A DNA stretch of 64,000 bases, taken from NCBI GenBank assembly GCA_046482325.1, contig JAWOFF010000107.1, forward strand, positions 1,244 to 65,243, read 5' to 3'. This document shows positions 1,316-12,898 of this stretch, piece after piece (the first letter of the stretch is position 1; each line of letters starts with the position of its first letter). The notes under the pieces are model-generated. The model was not told the origin of the DNA and made no database searches. It was given only the letters and a program-made list of their open reading frames with translations. A program made the translations under genes and the position numbers. The DNA comes from Desulfosalsimonadaceae bacterium. Its GTDB lineage: Bacteria; Desulfobacterota; Desulfobacteria; Desulfobacterales; Desulfosalsimonadaceae.

Positions 1316-3385
1316 ATGGAATGGATATTGAATAATATCCCGCTGAGTTGCACAATTGTTGGATTTATTGGAATTGCGTATTCGCTTATTGTGGCCGGAG
1401 CTATTAAAAAAGCTCCGAAAGGCGATCCCAAAATGATCGAAATCGCCAATGCCATTGAGGAGGGCTCCATTGCCTACCTGAATCGGCAGATGAAAAGCAT
1501 GGCGATTGTCGGGATCATTATTTTCGTGCTAATTTTTCTGGGCCTGGGCGCAAAAACGGCCGTAGGCTTTTTGGTGGGTGCAGTAGCCTCCTATCTCGCC
1601 GGCTATATCGGCATGCGGGTCTCAGTGCTGGCAAATCTCCGGGTGGCCGAAGCCTGTAAAAAAGGGCTGGCAGCGGGCCTGAGCCTGGCCTTCAAAGGCG
1701 GCTCGGTTACCGGCATGCTGGTGGCGGGCCTTGCCCTTGCCTCCATCGCCGGCTTCTTTACCTACATGACCGCCAGCAGCCCGCAGGACATGCCGCTTGT
1801 TGAACAGGTAGTTCCCCTTGTTGCACTCGGCTTCGGCGGCAGTCTGGTCTCCATCTTTGCCAGGCTCGGGGGCGGCATTTTTACCAAAGGTGCCGACGTG
1901 GGCGCCGACCTGGTCGGCAAAGTTGAAGCCGGCATTCCCGAGGACGATCCCCGCAACCCGGCCACCATTGCTGACAATGTGGGCGATAACGTGGGCGATT
2001 GTGCCGGTATGGCAGCCGACCTTTTCGAGACATACGCGGTAACCGTTGTCGCAGCCATGCTGCTGGGAGCGCTGATCTTTGCAGAAAACACCATGGCAGT
2101 TCACTTTCCGCTGCTGCTGGGCGCGGTATCCATTATTGCCTCCATCATCGCCACTTTCTTTGTCCGGATGGGCAAAAGTGAATACATCATGGGCGCCCTG
2201 TACAAAGGAATGTTCGGAGCCGCCATTCTGGCAGCCATTGCATTCTACTTTGTAACAACAAGCATTATGACAGAAATGAACGGCATCCCGGCCATCAACC
2301 TGTTTTACTCTGCGCTGATCGGTCTGGTTTTGACCGTTATCATCGTTATTATCACCGAGTATTATACCGGCACATACAAACCGGTTAAAGGCATTGCAGA
2401 AGCCTCCACCACCGGCCACGGCACCAACATTATCGCTGGTCTTGCAGTAAGTCTGCAGTCCACCGCAGCCCCGGTGTTTGCAATCTGTATAGCTATCGGC
2501 CTTGCTTACGGATTTGCCGGACTCTACGGCATCGCCATTGCCACAGTGGCAATGCTGTCCATGACCGGTATGGTTATCGCCATTGACGCTTACGGCCCGA
2601 TCACCGACAATGCCGGCGGGATTGCCGAAATGGCGGAAATGGACGACTCCGTGCGCGCTGTCACCGACCCCCTCGACGCAGTCGGCAACACCACCAAGGC
2701 GGTTACCAAGGGCTATGCCATCGGCTCCGCCGGGCTCGCCGCACTGGTTCTGTTCGCCTCCTATACGCAGGAATTTGTCCTGCAAGCAGAAAAAGCAGCC
2801 GAGGAATCAGGCGGTCTTGCCGAAACGATCTCCTTTGATCTCTCCAATGTGGACGTTATCATCGGGCTCTTCCTCGGCGGACTGCTGCCTTACCTGTTCG
2901 GCTCCATGGCCATGCAGGCAGTGGGACGCGCCGGCAGCGCTGTTGTTGACGAAGTCCGCCGCCAGTTCCGCGAACTGCCGGGAATCATGGAAGGCACTGC
3001 CAAACCGGATTATCACACCTGTGTGGACATTGTCACCAAACACGCTCTCAAAGAAATGATGGTTCCCGCACTACTGCCGGTCGTTGCACCGATACTGGTC
3101 GGCTTCCTGCTGGGCAAAGTAGCGCTCGGCGGCCTTTTGATCGGCTCCATTATCACCGGTCTGTTTGTGGCCATTTCCATGACCACCGGCGGCGCCGCCT
3201 GGGATAACGCTAAAAAATACATTGAAGACGGCTTTTTCGGCGGCAAGGGAAGTGATGCACATAAAGCAGCTGTTACCGGCGATACAGTCGGCGACCCGTA
3301 CAAGGATACGGCAGGTCCGGCAATCAACCCCATGATCAAGATCCTCAATGTTGTGGCTCTGCTCATGGTGCCGTTTTTGATGTAA
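1316..3385 (+). CDS. hppA: membrane-bound proton-translocating pyrophosphatase, K+-independent type
   Basis: 689 aa and TM-rich, with [27 protein letters not shown] and [21 protein letters not shown] motifs. [10 protein letters not shown] carries Lys rather than Ala, the K+-independent signature. SD GGGAGGG lies upstream. Confidence 0.95.
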
Positions 3386-3533: not shown

Positions 3534-4073
3534 ATGGCCAAAAAAGCGGAAGCCCAGAAACAGAACTTTAAGGAATTTGAGGTGGGGGATCTTGCGGTAT
3601 ATCCGGCACACGGCGTAGGACGCATCGAATCCATTGAAAGCCGGACCATTAACGGAGATAAACACAACTTCTATATTATGAAGATCATTGACAACGGCAT
3701 GGTGATTATGATCCCCACCAACAATGTCGAGTCAGTCGGTCTTCGCGAGGTAATCCGGGAAGACGAGATCCCGGAAATCTACTCCGTGCTGAGACAGAAA
3801 AAAGAAGACATCTTCGACAACCAGACATGGAACCGGCGGTATAAGGAATACATGGATAAGATCAAAACCGGCTCGCTCTACGATGTTGCCGAGGTATTCC
3901 GGGATCTTTTTGTGCTGAAACTAGCGAAGGACCTGTCTTTTGGCGAACGCAAGCTGCTGGACACAGCCCGGGGACTGCTGCTCAGGGAGCTCTGCATTGC
4001 CAGGGATGCCGATGAGACAGCCACCTGGAACGAAATCGAATCCCTGTTTACACCCCCTGCCCAATCGCAGTAA
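3534..4073 (+). CDS. carD: CarD/CdnL-family RNA-polymerase-binding transcription regulator
   Basis: 179 aa. The N-terminal FEVGDLAVYPAHGVGRIESIE...NFYIMKI matches the CarD_CdnL_TRCF domain. Confidence 0.9.
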   Translation: MAKKAEAQKQNFKEFEVGDLAVYPAHGVGRIESIESRTINGDKHNFYIMKIIDNGMVIMIPTNNVESVGLREVIREDEIPEIYSVLRQKKEDIFDNQTWNRRYKEYMDKIKTGSLYDVAEVFRDLFVLKLAKDLSFGERKLLDTARGLLLRELCIARDADETATWNEIESLFTPPAQSQ

Positions 4074-4080
4074 TTTCTCC

Positions 4081-5106
4081 ATGAATGGCGGGAGGGACTT
4101 TACGTTCCAGTTCCATGCCGAAGCCGATGCAGGCAGGAGGCTGGATATCCTGACTGCCGAGCGACACCCTCAGTTGTCTCGCAGCACCGCAGCCCGCCTA
4201 ATCCGTGAGGGACGCATCCGCGTCAACGGCAAGCCGTGCAAGCCCGGCTATAAGCCTGCGCCAGGGGACAGGATAAGCGGTGAAATCTTCGAACCCGTCA
4301 AGGAGGCCCTCCCTCTTGAGGCCGAGGCCATCGATCTTGACGTCATCTTTGCGGATGCGCACTGCCTGGCTGTAAACAAGCCTCCTGCAATGGTTGTGCA
4401 TCCCTCCCCCGGACACACCGTCGGAACTTTTGCCGGCGCTCTGCTCTACCATTTTCCGGAAATCCAGGGGGTAGGCACCGCGGCAGAGCGGCCGGGAATT
4501 GTACACCGCCTGGACAAAGACACCTCCGGGCTTATCCTTGCTGCAAAAACCCCTTCCGCCTTTCAAAACCTGACTGAACAATTCAAAAAGCGCCGTATTG
4601 AAAAACACTATCTGGCCCTGACCTATGGACGGCCGCCGCAGGAGAGCGGACGCATTGATCTGCCCATAGGCCGCCACCGGGAGGACAGGAAAAAAATGTC
4701 CGCCAGAAGGCACACAAAGGCCCGGCACGCCTTAACCTTCTGGCGGCTTTGCTGTTTCTGGGAGGGGATCTCGCTTATAGAATACCGGATAGCAACCGGC
4801 CGTACCCATCAGATCCGGGTACACAGTTCCGCCATAGGCTGCCCCATTGTAGGCGACAGAGTATATGGCCCGAAAAAGCCTTCCAGGCTTTTGCACAACC
4901 CGAGACTCCGGAATGTTAGCCAGGCGGCGTCGCGCCAGATGCTGCACGCCTGGAAGCTGCGCTTTATGCACCCGGAAAGCGGAAGTCCGGTCTGTATCCA
5001 GGCGGAGCCGGCTGCGGATATGCAGTTGATACTGGAGAGGCTGCGTGAAGAGTCCGGCCGGGACTGCTTTACAAAAACAACGGTCATCGGGCCGGAGGAT
5101 CATTAG
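4081..5106 (+). CDS. rluD: RluA/RluD-family 23S rRNA pseudouridine synthase
   Basis: S4-like N-terminus (RLDILTAE...AARLIREGRIRVNGK) and catalytic GIVHRLDKDTSG. The start is set at ATG 4081, just after the carD stop, rather than the track start at 3940, which overlaps carD. Confidence 0.85.
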   Translation: MNGGRDFTFQFHAEADAGRRLDILTAERHPQLSRSTAARLIREGRIRVNGKPCKPGYKPAPGDRISGEIFEPVKEALPLEAEAIDLDVIFADAHCLAVNKPPAMVVHPSPGHTVGTFAGALLYHFPEIQGVGTAAERPGIVHRLDKDTSGLILAAKTPSAFQNLTEQFKKRRIEKHYLALTYGRPPQESGRIDLPIGRHREDRKKMSARRHTKARHALTFWRLCCFWEGISLIEYRIATGRTHQIRVHSSAIGCPIVGDRVYGPKKPSRLLHNPRLRNVSQAASRQMLHAWKLRFMHPESGSPVCIQAEPAADMQLILERLREESGRDCFTKTTVIGPEDH

Positions 5107-5969: not shown

Positions 5970-8042
5970 CTACGAAGCCATTACATCCGGATTGTAGCAA
6001 AGCCTGCAGCAATCCAGACAGCGATCAGCTTCGGAAAGAGCGCTTTGTTCGCTGATTACCAGATCTACCTCATCAAAGGTATGAATCCGCTCGGAAACAG
6101 GCAATTCGGGGGTTTGCACGCGCCGCCGGTCCCGTTTTACACCTTCCACCGAATCAAAAATGGTTTCCTGGATGTGTTTGTTCAAGATCGCCTTCGGCTC
6201 CGGAGTTACAGGCTTGTTTCGCAAAAACAGATTGATGGAGCGGGCAGCCTTGCGTCCCCCGCCGATGGCGTCAACAACAAGCGCCGGTCCGGTTGCGGCG
6301 TCACCCGCAGCAAAAATATAGGGCACATTGGTCTGATGGGTGGCGGGGTCCACCTCGAAAGTGTTCCAGCGGGTCATGGACAAATCATCCAGCCGGTCGC
6401 CCTTCCCACGGAATTCAGCCAGCGGCGCCTGGCCTATGGCCGTAATGATGGTTTCAACCTCCAGCACCGTCTCTGAGCCCTCAATGGGAACCGGCCGTCG
6501 CCGTCCACTGGCATCCGGCTCACCAAGTTCCATTTTTAAATACTCCAGTCCGCAGACCCTTTCCTGTTCATCGCCCATCACGCGGTTGGGAGACGCCAAA
6601 AAAATATACTCAATGCCCTCATGTTCAGCAGCCTCTATTTCCACGTCATTTGCGGGCATCTCATTTCGTGTGCGGCGATAAACCAGGTAAACCTTTTCAC
6701 AGCCCTTGCGCACGAGGGTTCTCGCACAGTCAATAGCCGTATTGCCGCCCCCGATAACAGCGGCGCGCCTGCCAACGGCAACGGACTCTTCATTGCCGAC
6801 CCGGGAAAGAAAGTCAATCCCTGTAAAGCATCCGGGCAGATTCTCTCCCGGGATCTTTAACTGATAATCGTTCCATGCTCCGATGCTGAAAAATACGGCG
6901 TCGAAACCTGCGGCAATCAGGGATCCAAATTCAAAATCGCGCCCAAGCCGGACGTTGGTGTGATGCTCAATGCCGGTGTTTAAGATCCCCTCGATCTCCC
7001 AGTCCAGGACTTTTTTGGGCAGACGGTATTCAGGAATCCCATAGCGCAGCATGCCTCCCAGCCGGGGCATAGCCTCGAATATGCCGGGATGATGCCCGAC
7101 CCTGCGCAGAAAATACGCACAGCTCAATCCTGCCGGTCCTCCGCCAATCACCGCCACCCGTTTTCCGGTATCCGGGGCGGTCTCAATAGGTATACGCCTG
7201 CCGGCGTTCATTTCATAGTCTGCGACAAAACGCTTGAGGTGATTGATGGCTACCGGCTCATCCTCAATGCCCCGGCGGCACCAGGACTCACAGGGATGGG
7301 GGCAAACCCTGCCGCAGGTCAGCAGAAGGGGATTTCGCTCCCGGATTGTATTGACTGCTTCTTCATACTCACCGGTTTTGATATGCTGAATATAACGGGG
7401 AATGTCAATTTCTGCGGGGCAGGTCTGCGCACAGGGAGCCACGGCATCCTCAGTTGTGTTTAAATGCAGCAGGCGCTCGGACATGGTCCGCACCTTCAAA
7501 ATCGGCTTGGGACAGGCACGCTCACACGCTCCGCAGCCAACGCATTTCTCCTTGTTCACAACAGGATAGCCCTGCTCTCCCATCTTTATGGCATCAAAGG
7601 TGCAGGCCCGGATACAGTCGCCAAAACCCAGACAGCCGATCCAGCAATCCCTTTTGCCGCCGAACATGGCAGCTGCTGCTTTGCAGCTGTTTAGACCTTT
7701 ATAAAAAAACCGATCCGTAGCCCTGCTTCCGCCGGTGCAGTCATTATACGATTTCAGCGGCTCCGCGGATCCGGCTTCCAATCCCATAATCGCTGCGATT
7801 TCCGCCACATTTTCCGAACTGTTCAGTATACAGACCGAAGGAGGGGCTTCCCCTTTGACAATGGCCTCTGCAGCCGCGGCACAGCCGGTGTATCCGCATC
7901 CGCCGCAATTGGCGCCGGCCAGCAGACCTTCCACCTTGGCGATCCTCGGATCCTCATAGACATAGAATATGCGCGAAGCAAAACTCAGAGCCAATCCTAT
8001 AACAAGGCCGAGTCCCAGCGTAAAAAGTACAGATTCGAGCAC
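5970..8042 (-). CDS. rnfB: RnfB-like Fe-S subunit fused to a GltD/NfnB-like NAD(P)H-dependent FAD/Fe-S oxidoreductase
   Basis: 690 aa. It has an N-terminal TM helix, an RnfB-type CGGCGYTGC...C Fe-S domain and a ferredoxin domain (CVGCGACERACP), roughly nt 7475..8042. The rest is glutamate-synthase-small-chain-like: Cys-rich Fer4_20-like segment, VAVIGGGPAGLSCA (FAD) and AAVIGGGNTAIDCA (NAD(P)H). It is the last gene of the rnf operon. Confidence 0.85.
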   Translation of the reverse strand: MLESVLFTLGLGLVIGLALSFASRIFYVYEDPRIAKVEGLLAGANCGGCGYTGCAAAAEAIVKGEAPPSVCILNSSENVAEIAAIMGLEAGSAEPLKSYNDCTGGSRATDRFFYKGLNSCKAAAAMFGGKRDCWIGCLGFGDCIRACTFDAIKMGEQGYPVVNKEKCVGCGACERACPKPILKVRTMSERLLHLNTTEDAVAPCAQTCPAEIDIPRYIQHIKTGEYEEAVNTIRERNPLLLTCGRVCPHPCESWCRRGIEDEPVAINHLKRFVADYEMNAGRRIPIETAPDTGKRVAVIGGGPAGLSCAYFLRRVGHHPGIFEAMPRLGGMLRYGIPEYRLPKKVLDWEIEGILNTGIEHHTNVRLGRDFEFGSLIAAGFDAVFFSIGAWNDYQLKIPGENLPGCFTGIDFLSRVGNEESVAVGRRAAVIGGGNTAIDCARTLVRKGCEKVYLVYRRTRNEMPANDVEIEAAEHEGIEYIFLASPNRVMGDEQERVCGLEYLKMELGEPDASGRRRPVPIEGSETVLEVETIITAIGQAPLAEFRGKGDRLDDLSMTRWNTFEVDPATHQTNVPYIFAAGDAATGPALVVDAIGGGRKAARSINLFLRNKPVTPEPKAILNKHIQETIFDSVEGVKRDRRRVQTPELPVSERIHTFDEVDLVISEQSALSEADRCLDCCRLCYNPDVMAS

Positions 8043-8137: not shown

Positions 8138-8713
8138 TTATACCATCCCCTTGAAAGCCATAAATGCCAGGGATAAAACGCCTGCTGTTACCAGACCGAT
8201 AGAGGTATCCTGCAATGGTTTCGGCACCCTTGCCAGGATAATCCGTTCCCGCACACCGGCAAAGAGAATAAGGGCCAGCCCAAAGCCAAGGGCATAGGCG
8301 ATAGAAGCGATAAGCGCCTGCAGAAAGGTGTATTCCTCCTGCACGTTTATCAGGCAGACACCCATAACTGCGCAGTTTGTGGTAATAAGAGGCAGAAAAA
8401 TGCCAAGCCCTGCATACAGGGCGGGAATGCTTTTCTTGAGAAACATTTCAACAAATTGCACCAGCGATGCAATGACCAGAATAAAAGCAATGGTGCGCAA
8501 AAATTCAATGCCCAGGGTAGCCAGAAAACAGGTGTTTATCACCCAGGTGATAACACCGGCCATGACCATAACAAAGAGGACCGCCATGGCCATGCCCACG
8601 GCCGTCTCCATTTTTTTGGAAGTGCCCAGGAAAGGACAGTTCCCCAGATACTGCGCCAGCACAATGTTGTTTATAAAGATACAACTGATGACCAGAACAA
8701 AGATATCGCCCAT
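8138..8713 (-). CDS. rnfA: Rnf complex subunit A
   Basis: 191 aa, collinear with E. coli RsxA (FINNIVLAQYLGNCPFLG, GIFLPLITTNCAVMG, AGVLSLAFMAFKG). Confidence 0.95.
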   Translation of the reverse strand: MGDIFVLVISCIFINNIVLAQYLGNCPFLGTSKKMETAVGMAMAVLFVMVMAGVITWVINTCFLATLGIEFLRTIAFILVIASLVQFVEMFLKKSIPALYAGLGIFLPLITTNCAVMGVCLINVQEEYTFLQALIASIAYALGFGLALILFAGVRERIILARVPKPLQDTSIGLVTAGVLSLAFMAFKGMV

Positions 8714-8749: not shown

Positions 8750-9343
8750 TTAACGGCTTCCGGCCAGATTCATCAGGCAGAGCATGAGCCCGAGGCACAC
8801 AAATGCCCCGGGTGCTTCCACCATGAAGGTAAGAGGCTCAAATGAAGGACCGAAAACTTCCATCCCGTAAAACGTTCCTTCGCCCAGCACTTCACGCACA
8901 GCCCCCAGCGCTCCGAGCGAAAGGGTGAACCCGATGCCGATGCCGAGGCCATCTGCCACCGCGTACACCGGCTTGTGCTTGGAGGCAAAGGCCTCCGCCC
9001 GGCCGAGGACTACGCAATTAACAACAATCAGCGGAATAAAAATTCCCAGCTGCAGGTATAGGGGATAGGCAAAAGCCTGCATCAGCAGTTCCACCACTGT
9101 AACAAAAGTAGCAATGATGATGATATAGCAGGCGATACGGATTTTGGGTGGAATCACGTTGCGAAGCAGCGAAACCAGGAGGTTGGAGCAGACCAGCACA
9201 AAGGTCGTCGCAACACCCATTCCCAGACCGTTGGGTACGGATTTGGTCACCGCAAGGACCGGGCAGAGCCCGAGGACCAGACGAAAGGGTGGAATCTCCT
9301 CCCATAAGCCTTTGGTAAATTCCTGAGCCAGTGTCTTTGCCAT
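8750..9343 (-). CDS. rnfE: Rnf complex subunit E
   Basis: 197 aa with LVLGLCPVLAVT and GIFIPLIVVNCVVLGRAEAFA motifs. Confidence 0.95.
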   Translation of the reverse strand: MAKTLAQEFTKGLWEEIPPFRLVLGLCPVLAVTKSVPNGLGMGVATTFVLVCSNLLVSLLRNVIPPKIRIACYIIIIATFVTVVELLMQAFAYPLYLQLGIFIPLIVVNCVVLGRAEAFASKHKPVYAVADGLGIGIGFTLSLGALGAVREVLGEGTFYGMEVFGPSFEPLTFMVEAPGAFVCLGLMLCLMNLAGSR

Positions 9344-9358
9344 AATCTTTATTTCCTT

Positions 9359-9952
9359 CTATCCGGAAAAAGTTGACAACTGTTTTTGAATCCGGGGTTT
9401 TACCTTATTGTAAAGATTCCCGGCTCTTCTGACGGCCGTACATACAGCCCGGGAGGTAATAGTGGCACCGGCCATGGGGATTATATCTCCGCCATCCTTT
9501 TTCACATTCGTCTCAGTGCCGATTTCCACTCCCTGGAACTGCTTTTTGAAATCTTCATGGGTCTCTACCCGGGCGCCCACGCCGGGCGTTTCATTATGGG
9601 TGGTAACGCTGACGCCATGGATTTTACCGGTTCTCACGTTTACGGCAACCATTGTTCCCACATCGCCCCCGTAGCCGCTGCCTTTGGTTTCAAAGGCCAC
9701 CACTCCGGGCTCTCCCTCATAAACGCCCACAAAAAAATTTCTTTCAGTTCCGTCAACCTGGAGCGAGAACCGATCCTGAATCGGATTATTGGAAGCGCCT
9801 TCCAAAATCTTCTTGATGGCCGGCCCCTTGACGAATTTGAGAACCTGGCTGTCAATACGATCCTGCGTGTTGTTCCGGATGGCAGCCAGCAATCCACCGG
9901 AGAAGCTGCTCAGAATTGTCAGCACAAGAACCATTTTTACCATTTCACGCAT
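9359..9952 (-). CDS. rnfG: Rnf complex subunit G (FMN-binding, periplasmic)
   Basis: 197 aa with an N-terminal anchor and an FMN_bind-type domain. It retains the flavinylation motif in AGATITSRAV. Confidence 0.9.
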   Translation of the reverse strand: MREMVKMVLVLTILSSFSGGLLAAIRNNTQDRIDSQVLKFVKGPAIKKILEGASNNPIQDRFSLQVDGTERNFFVGVYEGEPGVVAFETKGSGYGGDVGTMVAVNVRTGKIHGVSVTTHNETPGVGARVETHEDFKKQFQGVEIGTETNVKKDGGDIIPMAGATITSRAVCTAVRRAGNLYNKVKPRIQKQLSTFSG

Positions 9953-10913
9953 AATTGATCACCTTTCGCAAGGTCTTGGGTCGGATTTTATCAATTATCG
10001 GGTTGATAAGATTAATCAACAGAATGGCAAACACGACCCCGTCGATATGAGTGCCAATATTACGGATAAGAACCGTCAAAAAACCGCCAAGCGCTCCATA
10101 CAGCAACATGGGGATAAAGTTTACCGGTGATGAAGAATCATCTGTGGCCAGAAAGAAAGCGCCCAGCAGGGAATATCCGGTCAGAACATGAAAGCCGGCC
10201 CCGGCATATACCTGCGGGTTGGCCTGATGAAAAACAAAAGCTGTAATAAACATCCCGGCGATAAAGGAAAGCGCGATTTCCCAGCGGATATAGCCCCGGA
10301 GCATAAGATAAATCCCGCCGATAATCAACCCCAGCGCACAAGAGGTTCCAATGCCGCCCACCTGCCGGCCGAGCAGCAAATCGGCGGCAGAGAACCCTTC
10401 CACAGCGGCGGATCCGAATGATTTGGCCAGCAATAATGGAAAAACGGGATTGAAATCAAACTGGTAATTGACAAGTGCTTTATTAAAATCGAGGAAGCCG
10501 GGCCAGGAAATCAGCAGTACCGCAAATGCAAAGGCCACCGGATTAAAGGGATTTCCCCCCAGTCCGCCGAAAATCTGCTTGCCAATGACCACCATAAAAA
10601 GAGTCCCTACAACAACCACCCACCAGGGAGTAACAGCGGGCAGCATCATGGCAAACAGCATACCCAGCAGTGCGGCATTTCCATCGCCTATGGAGACCGG
10701 CCGCCGGGTTAAAAAATTCATTATGAGCTCCCAGATCATGGCCGAGGCGATCGAGAGCGCAACCAATGCCAGGGCGGCAAGACCGTATTGAAACAGGCCC
10801 GGGATTACCGCCAGCAGGGTGGCCAACAGGATATTGTAATTTTTGAGCGAAATCTGACTTCCGCTGTGCCAGAACGGGGCATGGGATACAGTCAGTTTGA
10901 TGGACTCAGGCAT
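9945..10913 (-). CDS. rnfD: Rnf complex subunit D
   Basis: 322 aa, collinear with RsxD/NqrB (PWWVVVVGTLFMVVIGKQIFGGLGGNPFNP, GAFFLATD). It overlaps rnfC and rnfG by 8 nt each. Confidence 0.9.
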   Translation of the reverse strand: MPESIKLTVSHAPFWHSGSQISLKNYNILLATLLAVIPGLFQYGLAALALVALSIASAMIWELIMNFLTRRPVSIGDGNAALLGMLFAMMLPAVTPWWVVVVGTLFMVVIGKQIFGGLGGNPFNPVAFAFAVLLISWPGFLDFNKALVNYQFDFNPVFPLLLAKSFGSAAVEGFSAADLLLGRQVGGIGTSCALGLIIGGIYLMLRGYIRWEIALSFIAGMFITAFVFHQANPQVYAGAGFHVLTGYSLLGAFFLATDDSSSPVNFIPMLLYGALGGFLTVLIRNIGTHIDGVVFAILLINLINPIIDKIRPKTLRKVINYA

Positions 10914-12189
10914 TGCTCTCCTCCGCTTTCATGCGCTCCAGCATGTGTTTGCCAAGTTTGATATGCTGAAAAATGGGAATCCGGGACTCACAGACAAAAG
11001 CGCACAGTCCGCATTCGATGCAGGCATCCAGCTCGGCCTGGGCGGCCGCCTGTTCATACTGCTCCGCCTCCAGCAGCCGGACCAGTATATTCACCGGGAT
11101 ATTAACAGGACATACCCTAACGCATTCACCGCAATTTATACAGGCCGTGCCCGAAGATTCCGGTATCCGGGAACTGTCCTGAATCATGATCACATCAGTA
11201 TCAGCTGCAACCGGCTGTTCTATGGTATAGACCGCGGTTCCGGTCATGGGGCCGCCGAAAATAAGCCGGTCGCCTTCCTCCAGAGTTTCGTTGAAGGTGT
11301 CCAGTATATTTTTAACCGGGGTTCCCATCGGTACGGAAACCATCCGTCTGCTGCCGTCTTTGGAGATAAAAGTCGCCATCTTGGTCAGGGGAAGCCGGCC
11401 TGTATTAAAGGCAGCCCCGATAGCGGATACCGCCTCCGCATTAAAAAAGGCCACATCCGCATTTCTCCCCTCGCCTCCGGCCTTTATCTCATCAGAGAGA
11501 ATGTGGCGGACAATCAGTTCCGGGTTTGCGGTCGGATATTCCGAATCCACTGTTTTTACGCCCGCGCCGGCGGCTCCGGCCACCTGTACCAGATGCTCGG
11601 GAACGGCCAGTATAACATTCTGAATGCCCGTCATTTTTCTGAGGGCATCGATGCCGGTTTTAATCGATTCAATGCTGGTTTTGACAAAATACTGGTTTGT
11701 AATGGCCAGAAGATCGTGTTCGGCTCCGAGAACCACAATCGCCTTAATCCGCCGGCCGGGATCAAAAAAGGGAGAGAAATCAGGTTTTCCGGGAAGTCCT
11801 TTCAGGAAACAGGCTGCTGCCTCAAGGCTGGGGTTCTTGCTCTGCTTCTTGAACTCTTCGTCAGGGACCTGCTCGGACTCCGGATCCACAGTAATGCTGA
11901 CTGCAGTCATCTTCTTCTGCATCATGCCAATAAAAGGCCTGACATCTGTGATTTTTCCGGATCTGCTGGCCAGGCCGTAATCGTCCGAATCCGCCGTGGC
12001 CCGGAGGCACTGGCCGCTTTTTACGTGTTCGCCCGCTGCAACTGCAAGATCCTGGCTATGCTCCAGCGGAGCGTCCAGCAAAAGTTGAATTTTTTCAGAT
12101 ACCGGGACATCAGCGGGCTCGGCGTCGCTGTCCACAATGGCCTCGTATGTCAGCCTCGGTTTGATAAAGCCAAAAAATGATCTTTTCAT
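10906..12189 (-). CDS. rnfC: RnfC-like subunit (N-terminal barrel, SLBB-like region, 2x[4Fe-4S]) lacking a recognisable NADH/FMN glycine motif
   Basis: 427 aa with CINCGECVRVCP and CIECGLCAFVCE near the C-terminus and an RnfC_N-like start. GLPGKPDFSP stands where GLGGAGFPT is expected. Confidence 0.8.
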   Translation of the reverse strand: MKRSFFGFIKPRLTYEAIVDSDAEPADVPVSEKIQLLLDAPLEHSQDLAVAAGEHVKSGQCLRATADSDDYGLASRSGKITDVRPFIGMMQKKMTAVSITVDPESEQVPDEEFKKQSKNPSLEAAACFLKGLPGKPDFSPFFDPGRRIKAIVVLGAEHDLLAITNQYFVKTSIESIKTGIDALRKMTGIQNVILAVPEHLVQVAGAAGAGVKTVDSEYPTANPELIVRHILSDEIKAGGEGRNADVAFFNAEAVSAIGAAFNTGRLPLTKMATFISKDGSRRMVSVPMGTPVKNILDTFNETLEEGDRLIFGGPMTGTAVYTIEQPVAADTDVIMIQDSSRIPESSGTACINCGECVRVCPVNIPVNILVRLLEAEQYEQAAAQAELDACIECGLCAFVCESRIPIFQHIKLGKHMLERMKAEESNA

Positions 12190-12262: not shown

Positions 12263-12898
12263 TTAATAGGCGTGGCACTGACTGCAGTCGGATTTTGCGG
12301 GCCCCGCCCCAAAATCCTCATGACAGCCCGCGCACTGGGTATGAAAGGCCTCGGTGCGATTCCGGGGAACATGGCATCCCGAGCACCGGCTCCGATCAGG
12401 CACGACACCATAGTCCTCGTGGCATCCTATACACTGCCTGTGGAAGGCTTCCTTTCTGCCGGGCATCCCGCCATTGCCCATGCCCTCCTGATGGCAGGCA
12501 GTGCAGGCCTGGGGCTGCTGAGAATCCCCCTCCTCGTAGTTGTGGTGGCAGTCGCTGCAATACAGGCCGTACTGCCGGGCATGGGCCTCATGGCTAAACA
12601 TCCCTTTTTCGCCCAGGGCCGGCTTATACTTGCTTTCTGCACCATGGCAGCTACCGCACTCCCCCGGCTTCTCTTCGCCGGCCTCCTGAAAGGCATGATG
12701 GCAATCCTCACAGTACAATCCATAGGAGTCGCTGTGGGTCTGGTGGGCGAACAATACGTCGTCGCCTGTAGCTGCAAACATTTTACGGACCGGAACTTCC
12801 GGGCTTTTCGAGGGAAACGCGGCATAGCCCAGAATACCGACGACAAGGCAGACAGCTAATAAACCGTACGCCAAATTCCGTTCGTTTTTCGAAGTCAT
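12263..12898 (-). CDS. membrane-anchored octahaem c-type cytochrome (cytochrome c3-like)
   Basis: 211 aa with an N-terminal hydrophobic anchor. Eight CxxCH motifs counted by hand (CEDCH, CGSCH, CSDCH, CTACH, CIGCH, CSGCH, CAGCH, CSQCH). It is the first gene of the rnf operon. Confidence 0.9.
   Translation of the reverse strand: MTSKNERNLAYGLLAVCLVVGILGYAAFPSKSPEVPVRKMFAATGDDVLFAHQTHSDSYGLYCEDCHHAFQEAGEEKPGECGSCHGAESKYKPALGEKGMFSHEAHARQYGLYCSDCHHNYEEGDSQQPQACTACHQEGMGNGGMPGRKEAFHRQCIGCHEDYGVVPDRSRCSGCHVPRNRTEAFHTQCAGCHEDFGAGPAKSDCSQCHAY

Follow-up and report, generated by a model that had tools for sequence, protein, structure and literature searches.

The stretch of DNA analyzed here (the window) comprises 64,000 nucleotides (nt) of contig JAWOFF010000107.1 (positions 1,244 to 65,243, forward strand) from an uncultured Desulfosalsimonadaceae bacterium (GenBank assembly GCA_046482325.1). 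It hosts, after the ftsQAZ end of the dcw cluster, a minus-strand cluster of seven genes in the order cytochrome c - rnfC - rnfD - rnfG - rnfE - rnfA - large rnfB, with the gene families assigned via Pfam and NCBIfam. The subject of this study is rnfC, which lies directly upstream of rnfD, its stop codon overlapping the rnfD start. Its neighbors are rnfD/G/E/A/B by both NCBIfam and Pfam, and the cluster is not an nqrB-F operon. With a probability of roughly 80%, we read the gene as encoding the RnfC of a complex of the Rnf2 type (or Tol2 type, after Desulfobacula toluolica Tol2), which has lost the site for flavin mononucleotide (FMN) and reduced nicotinamide adenine dinucleotide (NADH), keeps its iron-sulfur (Fe-S) clusters and leaves the pyridine-nucleotide chemistry to RnfB. 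The cluster consists of the following genes (lengths in amino acids, aa; FAD, flavin adenine dinucleotide):

12263..12898, minus strand: the cluster's first gene, for a membrane-anchored cytochrome c that has eight CxxCH motifs (Cytochrom_CIII, 4e-17)
10906..12189, minus strand: rnfC of the Rnf2 type, 427 aa, with RnfC fold and two 4Fe-4S motifs, lacking the FMN/NADH loop
9945..10913, minus strand: rnfD, 322 aa, lacking the N-terminal extension of NqrB type
9359..9952, minus strand: rnfG, flavinylation motif AGAT kept (T164, nt 9461-9463)
8750..9343, minus strand: rnfE, both conserved Cys kept (C27, C110)
8138..8713, minus strand: rnfA, both conserved Cys kept (C26, C114)
5970..8042, minus strand: rnfB fusion, 690 aa, RnfB part followed by an NfnB/StnC/GltD-like FAD-NADP(H)-2x[4Fe-4S] module

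Motif replacement and conservation in RnfC

Compared with canonical RnfC, the window protein differs or agrees at seven sites:

11770..11799, minus strand: GLPGKPDFSP, residues 131-140, replacing the FMN-phosphate/NADH loop GxGGAxFPT
11707..11727, minus strand: GAEHDLL, residues 155-161, replacing NG(A/C)ECEPY; G155 is invariant, D159 and L160 are nearly so
11515..11541, minus strand: EYPTANPEL, residues 217-225, replacing KYPQG(S/A)EKQ
11431..11445, minus strand: FNAEA, residues 249-253, replacing xNVxT; E252 is invariant in the family
11239..11256, minus strand: GGPMTG, residues 312-317, kept from the canonical GGPMMG
11110..11142, minus strand: first 4Fe-4S motif CINCGECVRVC, C350-C360, every Cys invariant
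10990..11022, minus strand: second 4Fe-4S motif CIECGLCAFVC, C390-C400, every Cys invariant

An earlier reading made without database searches (the sequence-only reading) had claimed that this RnfC lacks the glycine-rich NADH/FMN motif and that AECEPY is changed to AEHDLL. Both claims hold. Translation of nt 11707-11799 gives GLPGKPDFSPFFDPGRRIKAIVVLGAEHDLL, which covers the two altered motifs; the range proposed earlier spans them exactly, except that the start of GLPGKPDFSP had been set 3 nt off, at 11767 instead of 11770. A phmmer comparison with the solved RnfC chains 7zc6_C, 8ahx_C and 9eri_C aligned GLPGKPDFS with GMGGATFPT (7zc6_C) and GLGGAIFPA (8ahx_C), LGAEHDLL with NAAECEPY and NGSECEPY, and EYPTANPEL with KYPQGAEKQ. 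A profile alignment, which the sequence-only reading had proposed as a check, was performed using hmmalign and a hidden Markov model (HMM) of 26 canonical RnfC sequences, of which 23 belong to the same bacterial order and which include 7zc6_C and 8ahx_C. Within this alignment the window RnfC has gaps at all 12 glycine-loop positions (7zc6_C residues 134-145), i.e., the loop is simply deleted, while EHDLL stands opposite ECEPY, YPTANPE opposite YPQG(S/A)EK, NAEA opposite NVxT and GGPMTG opposite GGPMMG. In a regular-expression scan a GxGGxxFP-type loop was found in 26 of 26 canonical RnfC sequences but in none of 187 distinct relatives of the window protein, apart from one incidental GKGG at an unrelated position. 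Relocation of the FMN/NADH loop to another part of the protein, the case named earlier as speaking against its loss, is thereby ruled out, as such a motif occurs neither in the window protein nor in its 187 relatives.

The domain models gave a congruent picture. Complex1_51K reached 17.6 bits against a cut-off of 31.2, with a weak match to residues 146-257 that begins at profile position 26 and thus past the glycine loop, and no SLBB domain was detected at E <= 0.1. The rnfC model TIGR01945 scored 169 bits (167.8 in the genome search) and stayed below its cut-off of 245.95, as did the NqrA model TIGR01936 with 50.6 bits (cut-off 321). Over threshold were the Fer4 families and NQRA_2nd (PF24836; 26.8 bits, cut-off 25, residues 138-266). 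For the region of the former FMN/NADH loop, Pfam and NCBIfam yielded no match to any known flavin- or nucleotide-binding family. Since the FMN/NADH loop and the acidic motifs are replaced (PGxPDF ... GxxxDL ... YPxxxPE ... AEA), RnfC is, as far as sequence and model can tell, most likely neither a flavoprotein nor an NAD(H) dehydrogenase; the sequence-level predictions behind the earlier proposal that it no longer binds NADH/FMN were borne out.

Conservation was evaluated on a set of 114 RnfC homologues with 44-86% identity. G134 and E252 as well as all eight Cys of the two CxxCxxCxxxC motifs are invariant within this set, and P133, P136, D159, L160, T164 and Q166 are each conserved in at least 90% of the sequences. 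The replacement motif PGxPDF is thus conserved itself. Because its residues and the eight Cys are maintained throughout the 114 homologues, the difference to canonical RnfC is not a matter of chance or decay; this conservation pattern indicates that the new motif and the cluster Cys are under purifying selection.

The fold was assessed by an AlphaFold2 model, built cofactor-free on the homologue alignment, which reached a mean predicted local distance difference test (pLDDT) of 83.6 and a predicted template modeling (TM) score of 0.81. Residues 121-220, forming the NuoF-like fold around the pocket, were modeled with a pLDDT of 85-96. Foldseek placed the model closest to the RnfC structures 8ahx_C (A. 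vinelandii), 9eri_C (A. woodii) and 7zc6_C (C. tetanomorphum), with TM scores of 0.69-0.77 over the full length, followed by NqrA (TM 0.60-0.62) and NuoF-like subunits (about 0.4). In agreement with the sequence-only reading, the barrel and the two C-terminal 4Fe-4S motifs are retained, the former by the model and the Foldseek matches and the latter with all eight Cys present. In summary, the protein retains its fold, its cluster domain and its place beside rnfD, and the FMN/NADH residues are swapped for another conserved set.

Such a conserved set could also be the signature of a new site. According to this explanation RnfC still binds a flavin or nucleotide in a remodeled pocket, with PGxPDF/DL/AEA accommodating a different dinucleotide, another cofactor or substrate, or a non-covalent flavin held differently. 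The replacement residues are indeed as conserved as catalytic motifs usually are, their NuoF-like surroundings are predicted confidently, and the weak Complex1_51K match persists as a remnant. We nevertheless consider it unlikely: the glycine loop that wraps the FMN phosphate in NuoF/RnfC relatives is gone, with an Asp and two Pro in its place, the ExE motif and the glycine of YPQG are lost as well, no flavin- or nucleotide-binding family matches the region, and an NAD(P)H site is already available on RnfB.

Redox modules of the partner subunits

The loss of the RnfC site has its counterpart in RnfB, to which, as the sequence-only reading had stated, a nucleotide-binding module is attached. 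Features of RnfB and RnfD referred to below are:

7125-7157, minus strand: RnfB, FAD-binding GxGxxG
6729-6764, minus strand: RnfB, NAD(P)H-binding GxGxxA
6651-6692, minus strand: RnfB, YRR motif (VYRRTxxEMPA stretch)
5997-6020, minus strand: RnfB, C-terminal CLDCCRLC, residues 675-682
10440..10442, minus strand: RnfD, Phe158 (NPVFPL) at the position of the FMN-carrying Thr

Residues 1-195 of RnfB match RnfB chains (7zc6_B, 9eri_B), and the protein retains its own ferredoxin-type domain. Residues 183-681 align end to end with the subunit of the bifurcating NfnABC/StnABC enzymes that binds reduced nicotinamide adenine dinucleotide phosphate (NADPH; 9bov_A, 9n5u_A, 8oh5_C) at E values from 2e-130 (9bov_A) to 5e-109, followed by NfnB, GltD and dihydropyrimidine dehydrogenase; we define the NfnB/StnC/GltD-like module as residues ~196-681. 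Domain scores were 1.7e-32 for Pyr_redox_2, 1.2e-26 for Fer4_20 and 508 bits for NF009410. In the alignment with NfnABC/StnC, conservation extends to the two Rossmann motifs, one for FAD and one for NAD(P)H, to the VYRRTxxEMPA stretch and to the CLDCC tail at the C-terminus. The YRR motif, familiar from GltD and NfnB, probably signals NADPH rather than NADH. The RnfB tail with its CxxCC..C motif was further found to align with NfnABC chain A and StnC in their linker region, which suggests on sequence grounds that the module derived from an NfnABC/StnC-type transhydrogenase subunit rather than from NfnB proper.

A third redox subunit is affected. RnfD of A. woodii carries an FMN on Thr156 (PMC11889175), the last Thr of ..VTTAT-PL.., and counting along the phmmer alignment (9eri_D, 7zc6_D) brings this residue to Phe158 of the window RnfD. 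In a MAFFT alignment of 122 sequences, the corresponding column holds Thr in 29 of 29 Rnf1 RnfD and 13 of 13 NqrB sequences and Tyr or Phe in 71 of the 78 Rnf2-type RnfD; a second alignment gave 73 of 78, with no Thr. A placement of the lost site at S175-A-A-D178 was rejected, since the alignments point to Phe158. Judging from these alignments, RnfD of the Rnf2 type has lost the flavinylation Thr across the family, for which no report was found in the literature searched. RnfG retains its S-G-A-T threonine in 75 of 76 relatives, and the cluster Cys are kept in RnfA and RnfE of the Rnf2 type. Quinone reduction at RnfD as in NqrB was considered and appears unlikely, the 322-aa protein being shorter than NqrB (~392-415 aa) and lacking the N-terminal helices which form the NqrB quinone site (PMC12174285).

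Distribution, genome context and ancestry

Within 151 surveyed genomes of the class, RnfC of the Rnf2 type (called at E <= 1e-70) was detected in 126 genomes and 70 of 77 genera, with one copy each. Canonical RnfC above the TIGR01945 cut-off (about 480-510 bits) occurred in 47 genomes, always in addition to the Rnf2-type protein. This distribution bears on the explanation that the window gene is degenerate or decaying, i.e., a pseudogene or an assembly error, as its scores under the TIGR01945 and Complex1_51K cut-offs might imply. An intact reading frame, a conserved operon position, a single copy in the 126 genomes, invariant residues of its own and the detection of the proteins in cultured relatives (PMC5109826) speak against decay, which we regard as refuted by the conservation data.

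The cluster itself recurs to a large extent. In 80 related loci Rnf2-type rnfC is accompanied by the cytochrome gene in 75, rnfD and rnfG in 77 each, rnfE in 72, rnfA in 69 and a full-length large rnfB within the same cluster in 58, most shortfalls being due to truncated contigs. In six related loci rnfB is found upstream of the cytochrome gene (L035, L066, L074, L078, L079, L085). In locus L012, with 70% RnfC identity, the cluster runs straight into a pseudouridine synthase gene and an H+-pyrophosphatase gene; a 690-aa open reading frame (ORF) considered there as an inverted rnfB was rejected, being an H+-pyrophosphatase. Just beyond rnfB in the window lie an H+-translocating pyrophosphatase (1316-3385, plus strand), a CarD-family regulator (3534-4073, plus strand) and an RluD-like pseudouridine synthase (3940-5106, plus strand), the latter two recurring in ~27 related loci. 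None of the conserved neighbors qualifies as redox partner of RnfC, since the recurring genes are ftsZ/dcw upstream and the RluD-like, CarD and H+-pyrophosphatase genes downstream; this recurring synteny is attributed to the kinship of the genomes.

As a side observation, four relatives (G034, G087, G131, G143) contain a single in-frame stop (TAA, TGA or TAG) within the Rnf2-type rnfC match, and four (G001, G012, G041, G045) encode other RnfC-like ORFs of 205-237 bits that match only model positions ~114-432, some with one in-frame TGA. Pseudogenes, sequencing errors or selenoproteins are possible explanations for these stops.

The source genome (2.83 Mb, 184 contigs, 99.4% complete) encodes dsrA, ApbE and QrcA. 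No canonical RnfC, NqrA, NqrF over cut-off or NuoH was found in it, with zero matches to NqrA (TIGR01936) at 1e-40. A canonical rnfC copy or an nqr operon elsewhere in the genome, which would make the Rnf2-type copy redundant, was therefore dismissed as a candidate, although with 184 contigs the absence of a second canonical rnfC, an nqr operon and NuoH is likely rather than proven. Rnf2 may thus be the only pump of its kind in this organism. Unlike the source genome, 6 of 6 sampled relatives of the same family possess NqrA.

A maximum-likelihood tree, evaluated unrooted, separated the proteins into three clean clans, i.e., Rnf2-type RnfC, canonical RnfC (including the three solved structures) and NqrA, each with a support of at least 100/99. 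Because of these separate clans, the Rnf2-type RnfC is regarded as old and not as a recent derivative of a local canonical copy. Profile-profile comparison of full-length RnfC resulted in scores of 329 for Rnf2-canonical, 281 for Rnf2-NqrA and 182 for canonical-NqrA (142, 99 and 39 for the middle domain). In sequence space, the Rnf2-type RnfC therefore lies between RnfC and NqrA. That Rnf2 is the direct ancestor of Nqr is nonetheless improbable, because RnfD does not show the intermediate pattern of RnfC: Rnf1 RnfD scores 407 and Rnf2 RnfD 289 against NqrB, and NqrB keeps the Thr that Rnf2 RnfD has lost. The tree, an unrooted star, cannot decide on this ancestry. In Desulfobacterales nqrABCDEF operons we observed an NqrA (446 aa, NF003761; L134:7659-8999, minus strand, also L124-L133) with two CxxCxxCxxxCP motifs of RnfC type, the two 4Fe-4S motifs being kept in 10 of 12 sampled NqrA loci. 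Classical NqrA carries no cofactors. These Desulfobacterales NqrA proteins may represent a stage between RnfC and NqrA.

The proximity to NqrA invites the explanation that RnfC has a structural function only, as assumed for NqrA, and that its Fe-S clusters serve folding or stability with no physiological electron flow. Apart from the profile comparison, by which the window RnfC is nearer to NqrA than canonical RnfC is, this would be in line with an RnfD lacking the FMN-carrying Thr that normally relays electrons toward RnfC and with the two 4Fe-4S motifs in the Desulfobacterales NqrA, though Nqr needs none. However, none of the eight Cys varies among the 114 sequences, whose identity goes down to 44%, the pocket beside the distal cluster is conserved instead of drifting, and clusters of structural function only are usually lost over time, as in classical NqrA. 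On balance, we rate a purely structural role as slightly less probable still than a remodeled pocket. The designation as an "Fe-S and structural subunit" in the sequence-only reading accordingly stands with respect to the clusters, which are kept, and only half with respect to "structural", since the invariance of the cluster Cys speaks for a continuing importance of the Fe-S clusters.

Electron path and relation to known systems

If the FMN/NADH site of RnfC is lost as proposed, NAD(P)H would enter or leave at RnfB, whose NfnB/StnC-like FAD-NADP(H) module would be wired by Fe-S clusters to the RnfA/E side, a topology that would equal that of NqrF in Na+-NQR. RnfC would keep its N-terminal barrel, the NuoF-like middle domains and the ferredoxin domain with two [4Fe-4S] clusters, so that it would still dock on RnfD and act as an Fe-S-bearing anchor. 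Its clusters and conserved pocket may serve a redox partner in the cytoplasm or be in contact with the additional RnfB module, or they may have a structural function only. The Rnf2 acceptor would have to be more positive than NAD(P)H, and the cytochrome next to RnfG would be the best candidate in a complex that lacks the relay flavin of RnfD. Since RnfD lost the FMN-carrying Thr, RnfG keeps its Thr and the cluster begins with the gene for an octahaem cytochrome c, the most likely route is NADPH (and/or ferredoxin) <-> RnfB <-> RnfA/E cluster <-> RnfG-FMN <-> periplasmic cytochrome c -> Qrc and menaquinone, with ions moving at RnfA/E, to which we assign slightly less than even odds. The closest tested precedent, by analogy, would be the NAD-independent, cytochrome-linked Rnf of Methanosarcina acetivorans (PMC4023990).

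An opposite assignment of the two ends would have ferredoxin docking on the RnfC clusters and NADP+ being reduced on RnfB, leaving Rnf2 a ferredoxin:NAD(P)+ oxidoreductase with the U-shaped path reversed. The ferredoxin-like two-cluster domain and the emptied cleft of RnfC as well as the nucleotide site on RnfB would suit such a swap. In Rnf and Nqr, however, ions are exported when electrons move outward from the side of RnfB/NqrF (PMC11889175, PMC12174285), and as a consequence an exergonic transfer to NADP+ at RnfB from ferredoxin bound at RnfC would presumably import ions and conserve no energy. Considering also the missing FMN relay in RnfD and the ferredoxin-type domain retained by RnfB, we judge this swap to be very improbable, clearly more so than a remodeled pocket or a purely structural RnfC.

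Several points weigh against the reading of RnfC as a subunit with a lost FMN/NADH site and of RnfB as the place of nucleotide chemistry. A conserved motif occupies the vacated pocket (PGxPDF, D159, T164, Q166, E252), and a ligand or partner could still bind there. The reading does not account for the invariant RnfC clusters, which are all the harder to explain as the FMN supplying them is missing from RnfD. The assignment of NADPH over NADH draws on the similarity to NfnABC/StnC/NfnB and on the YRR motif. In about six loci with sufficient flank (L012, L018, L034, L037, L045, L058) rnfB is not adjacent, and the published description of Rnf2 stays at domain level.

Going beyond the individual steps, a tentative proposal, for which we see a chance of distinctly below one half, is that Rnf2 is no ferredoxin:NAD+ oxidoreductase but an Nqr-like, convergently rewired pump with the shortened path NADPH (entering through the NfnB-like module of RnfB) -> RnfA/E cluster -> RnfG-FMN -> octahaem cytochrome c -> Qrc -> menaquinone, the FMNs of RnfD and RnfC, which return electrons to the cytoplasm, being discarded; in this genome it would be the sole ion-pumping entry for NAD(P)H electrons into sulfate respiration. 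In a bolder variant, the emptied NAD cleft of RnfC may dock the NfnB-like module, whose FAD could then pass one share of the electrons to the clusters of RnfC and the other into the membrane path.

The loss of the RnfC FMN/NADH motif as such is already in the literature. A "different type of Rnf complex" was described in Desulfobacula toluolica Tol2 (Dörries et al. 2016, PMC5109826, citing Wöhlbrand et al. 2016 Proteomics 16:973), and the conclusion of an RnfC without FMN/NADH site was published for D. toluolica, Desulfococcus multivorans and Desulfobacteraceae generally (PMC5109826; PMC11887813 supplementary text). D. multivorans has rnf1 and rnf2, both expressed, and the presence of Rnf2 proteins in membrane proteomes shows that cultured relatives produce the complex (PMC5109826). 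A 2025 study in Science Advances (PMC11887813, fig. S18) lists Rnf2 in the Desulfobacteraceae core genome and notes a cytochrome c3 gene, and electron delivery through a cytochrome to Qrc was proposed for Rnf2 (PMC11887813; Rabus group). The 2025 RNF/NQR review makes no mention of the Rnf2 type (PMC12174285). The window cluster is therefore a further Rnf2/Tol2-type complex of an already published kind, correctly rediscovered on a new genome. Added here are the residue-level picture of RnfC, the conserved replacement motif, the RnfD Thr loss, the intermediate position between RnfC and NqrA, and the genome context.

Rnf2 belongs to the core genome of Desulfobacteraceae, which oxidize a large share of the organic carbon in marine sediments (PMC11887813), and it departs from canonical Rnf in three redox subunits, RnfB having gained NADP(H)/FAD, RnfC having lost FMN/NADH and RnfD the covalent-FMN site. 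Because these three subunits differ, the label "ferredoxin:NAD+ oxidoreductase" for Rnf2 in metabolic models is probably wrong. In addition, an RnfC type standing between RnfC and NqrA is useful for thinking about the origin of Na+-NQR.

Compared with the Rnf2/Tol2-type described, the window cluster shows no essential difference and adds a member from an uncultured genome. Both have a large RnfB (~700 aa; 690 aa in the window) bearing an NAD-binding pyridine-nucleotide-disulfide-oxidoreductase domain, an RnfC with no Complex1_51K or SLBB hits that keeps two 4Fe-4S motifs, and the gene order cyt c-rnfCDGEAB, which includes a gene for cytochrome c. Identity of the window RnfC amounts to 42-44% with its counterparts from Desulfosarcina cetonica (L064; 44% over the full length in strain JCM 12296) and from G008, a genome whose rnf1 (3.10 Mb) and rnf2 (3.12 Mb) follow the layout described for D. 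multivorans. According to the literature the remaining subunits are "very similar" to those of Rnf1; RnfD was found here to be without the flavinylated Thr across the family.

With canonical RnfC (A. woodii 9eri_C, C. tetanomorphum 7zc6_C, A. vinelandii 8ahx_C) the window protein has the overall fold, GGPM(M/T)G and a ferredoxin domain with two clusters at the C-terminus in common, and its gene likewise directly precedes rnfD; it differs by the absence of GxGGAxFPT, ECEPY and YPQGxEK, by a missing segment of ~17 residues before the loop and by its separate clan. Like NqrA (V. cholerae 8acy_A, 7xk3_A), it is an RnfC homologue without an FMN or NADH site, and as in Na+-NQR an NAD(P)H-oxidizing flavoprotein would be located at the RnfA/E (NqrD/E) side of the complex. 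In contrast to NqrA, Rnf2 RnfC keeps both 4Fe-4S clusters and lacks the ~34-residue insertion before the ferredoxin domain, and electrons would enter through an RnfB with an NfnB-like module attached to it instead of through NqrF.

The Rnf of M. acetivorans with MmcA resembles Rnf2 in the multihaem cytochrome c of its gene cluster (PMC4023990; bioRxiv 10.1101/2022.07.20.500911), in having no NAD(P) use at RnfC, in the proposed electron transfer from RnfG to the cytochrome and in the two 4Fe-4S motifs of RnfC. It is archaeal, though, with an RnfB of normal size lacking a nucleotide module and an RnfC over the TIGR01945 cut-off. Finally, the RnfB module shares two N-terminal 4Fe-4S sites, the Rossmann motifs, YRR and the C-terminal CxxC tail with the NADPH subunit of NfnABC/StnABC (9bov_A, 9n5u_A, 8oh5_C) and with NfnB (4ylf_B, 5jca_L), but in Rnf2 it is fused behind a membrane-anchored RnfB and not to a formate-dehydrogenase-like or NfnA partner.

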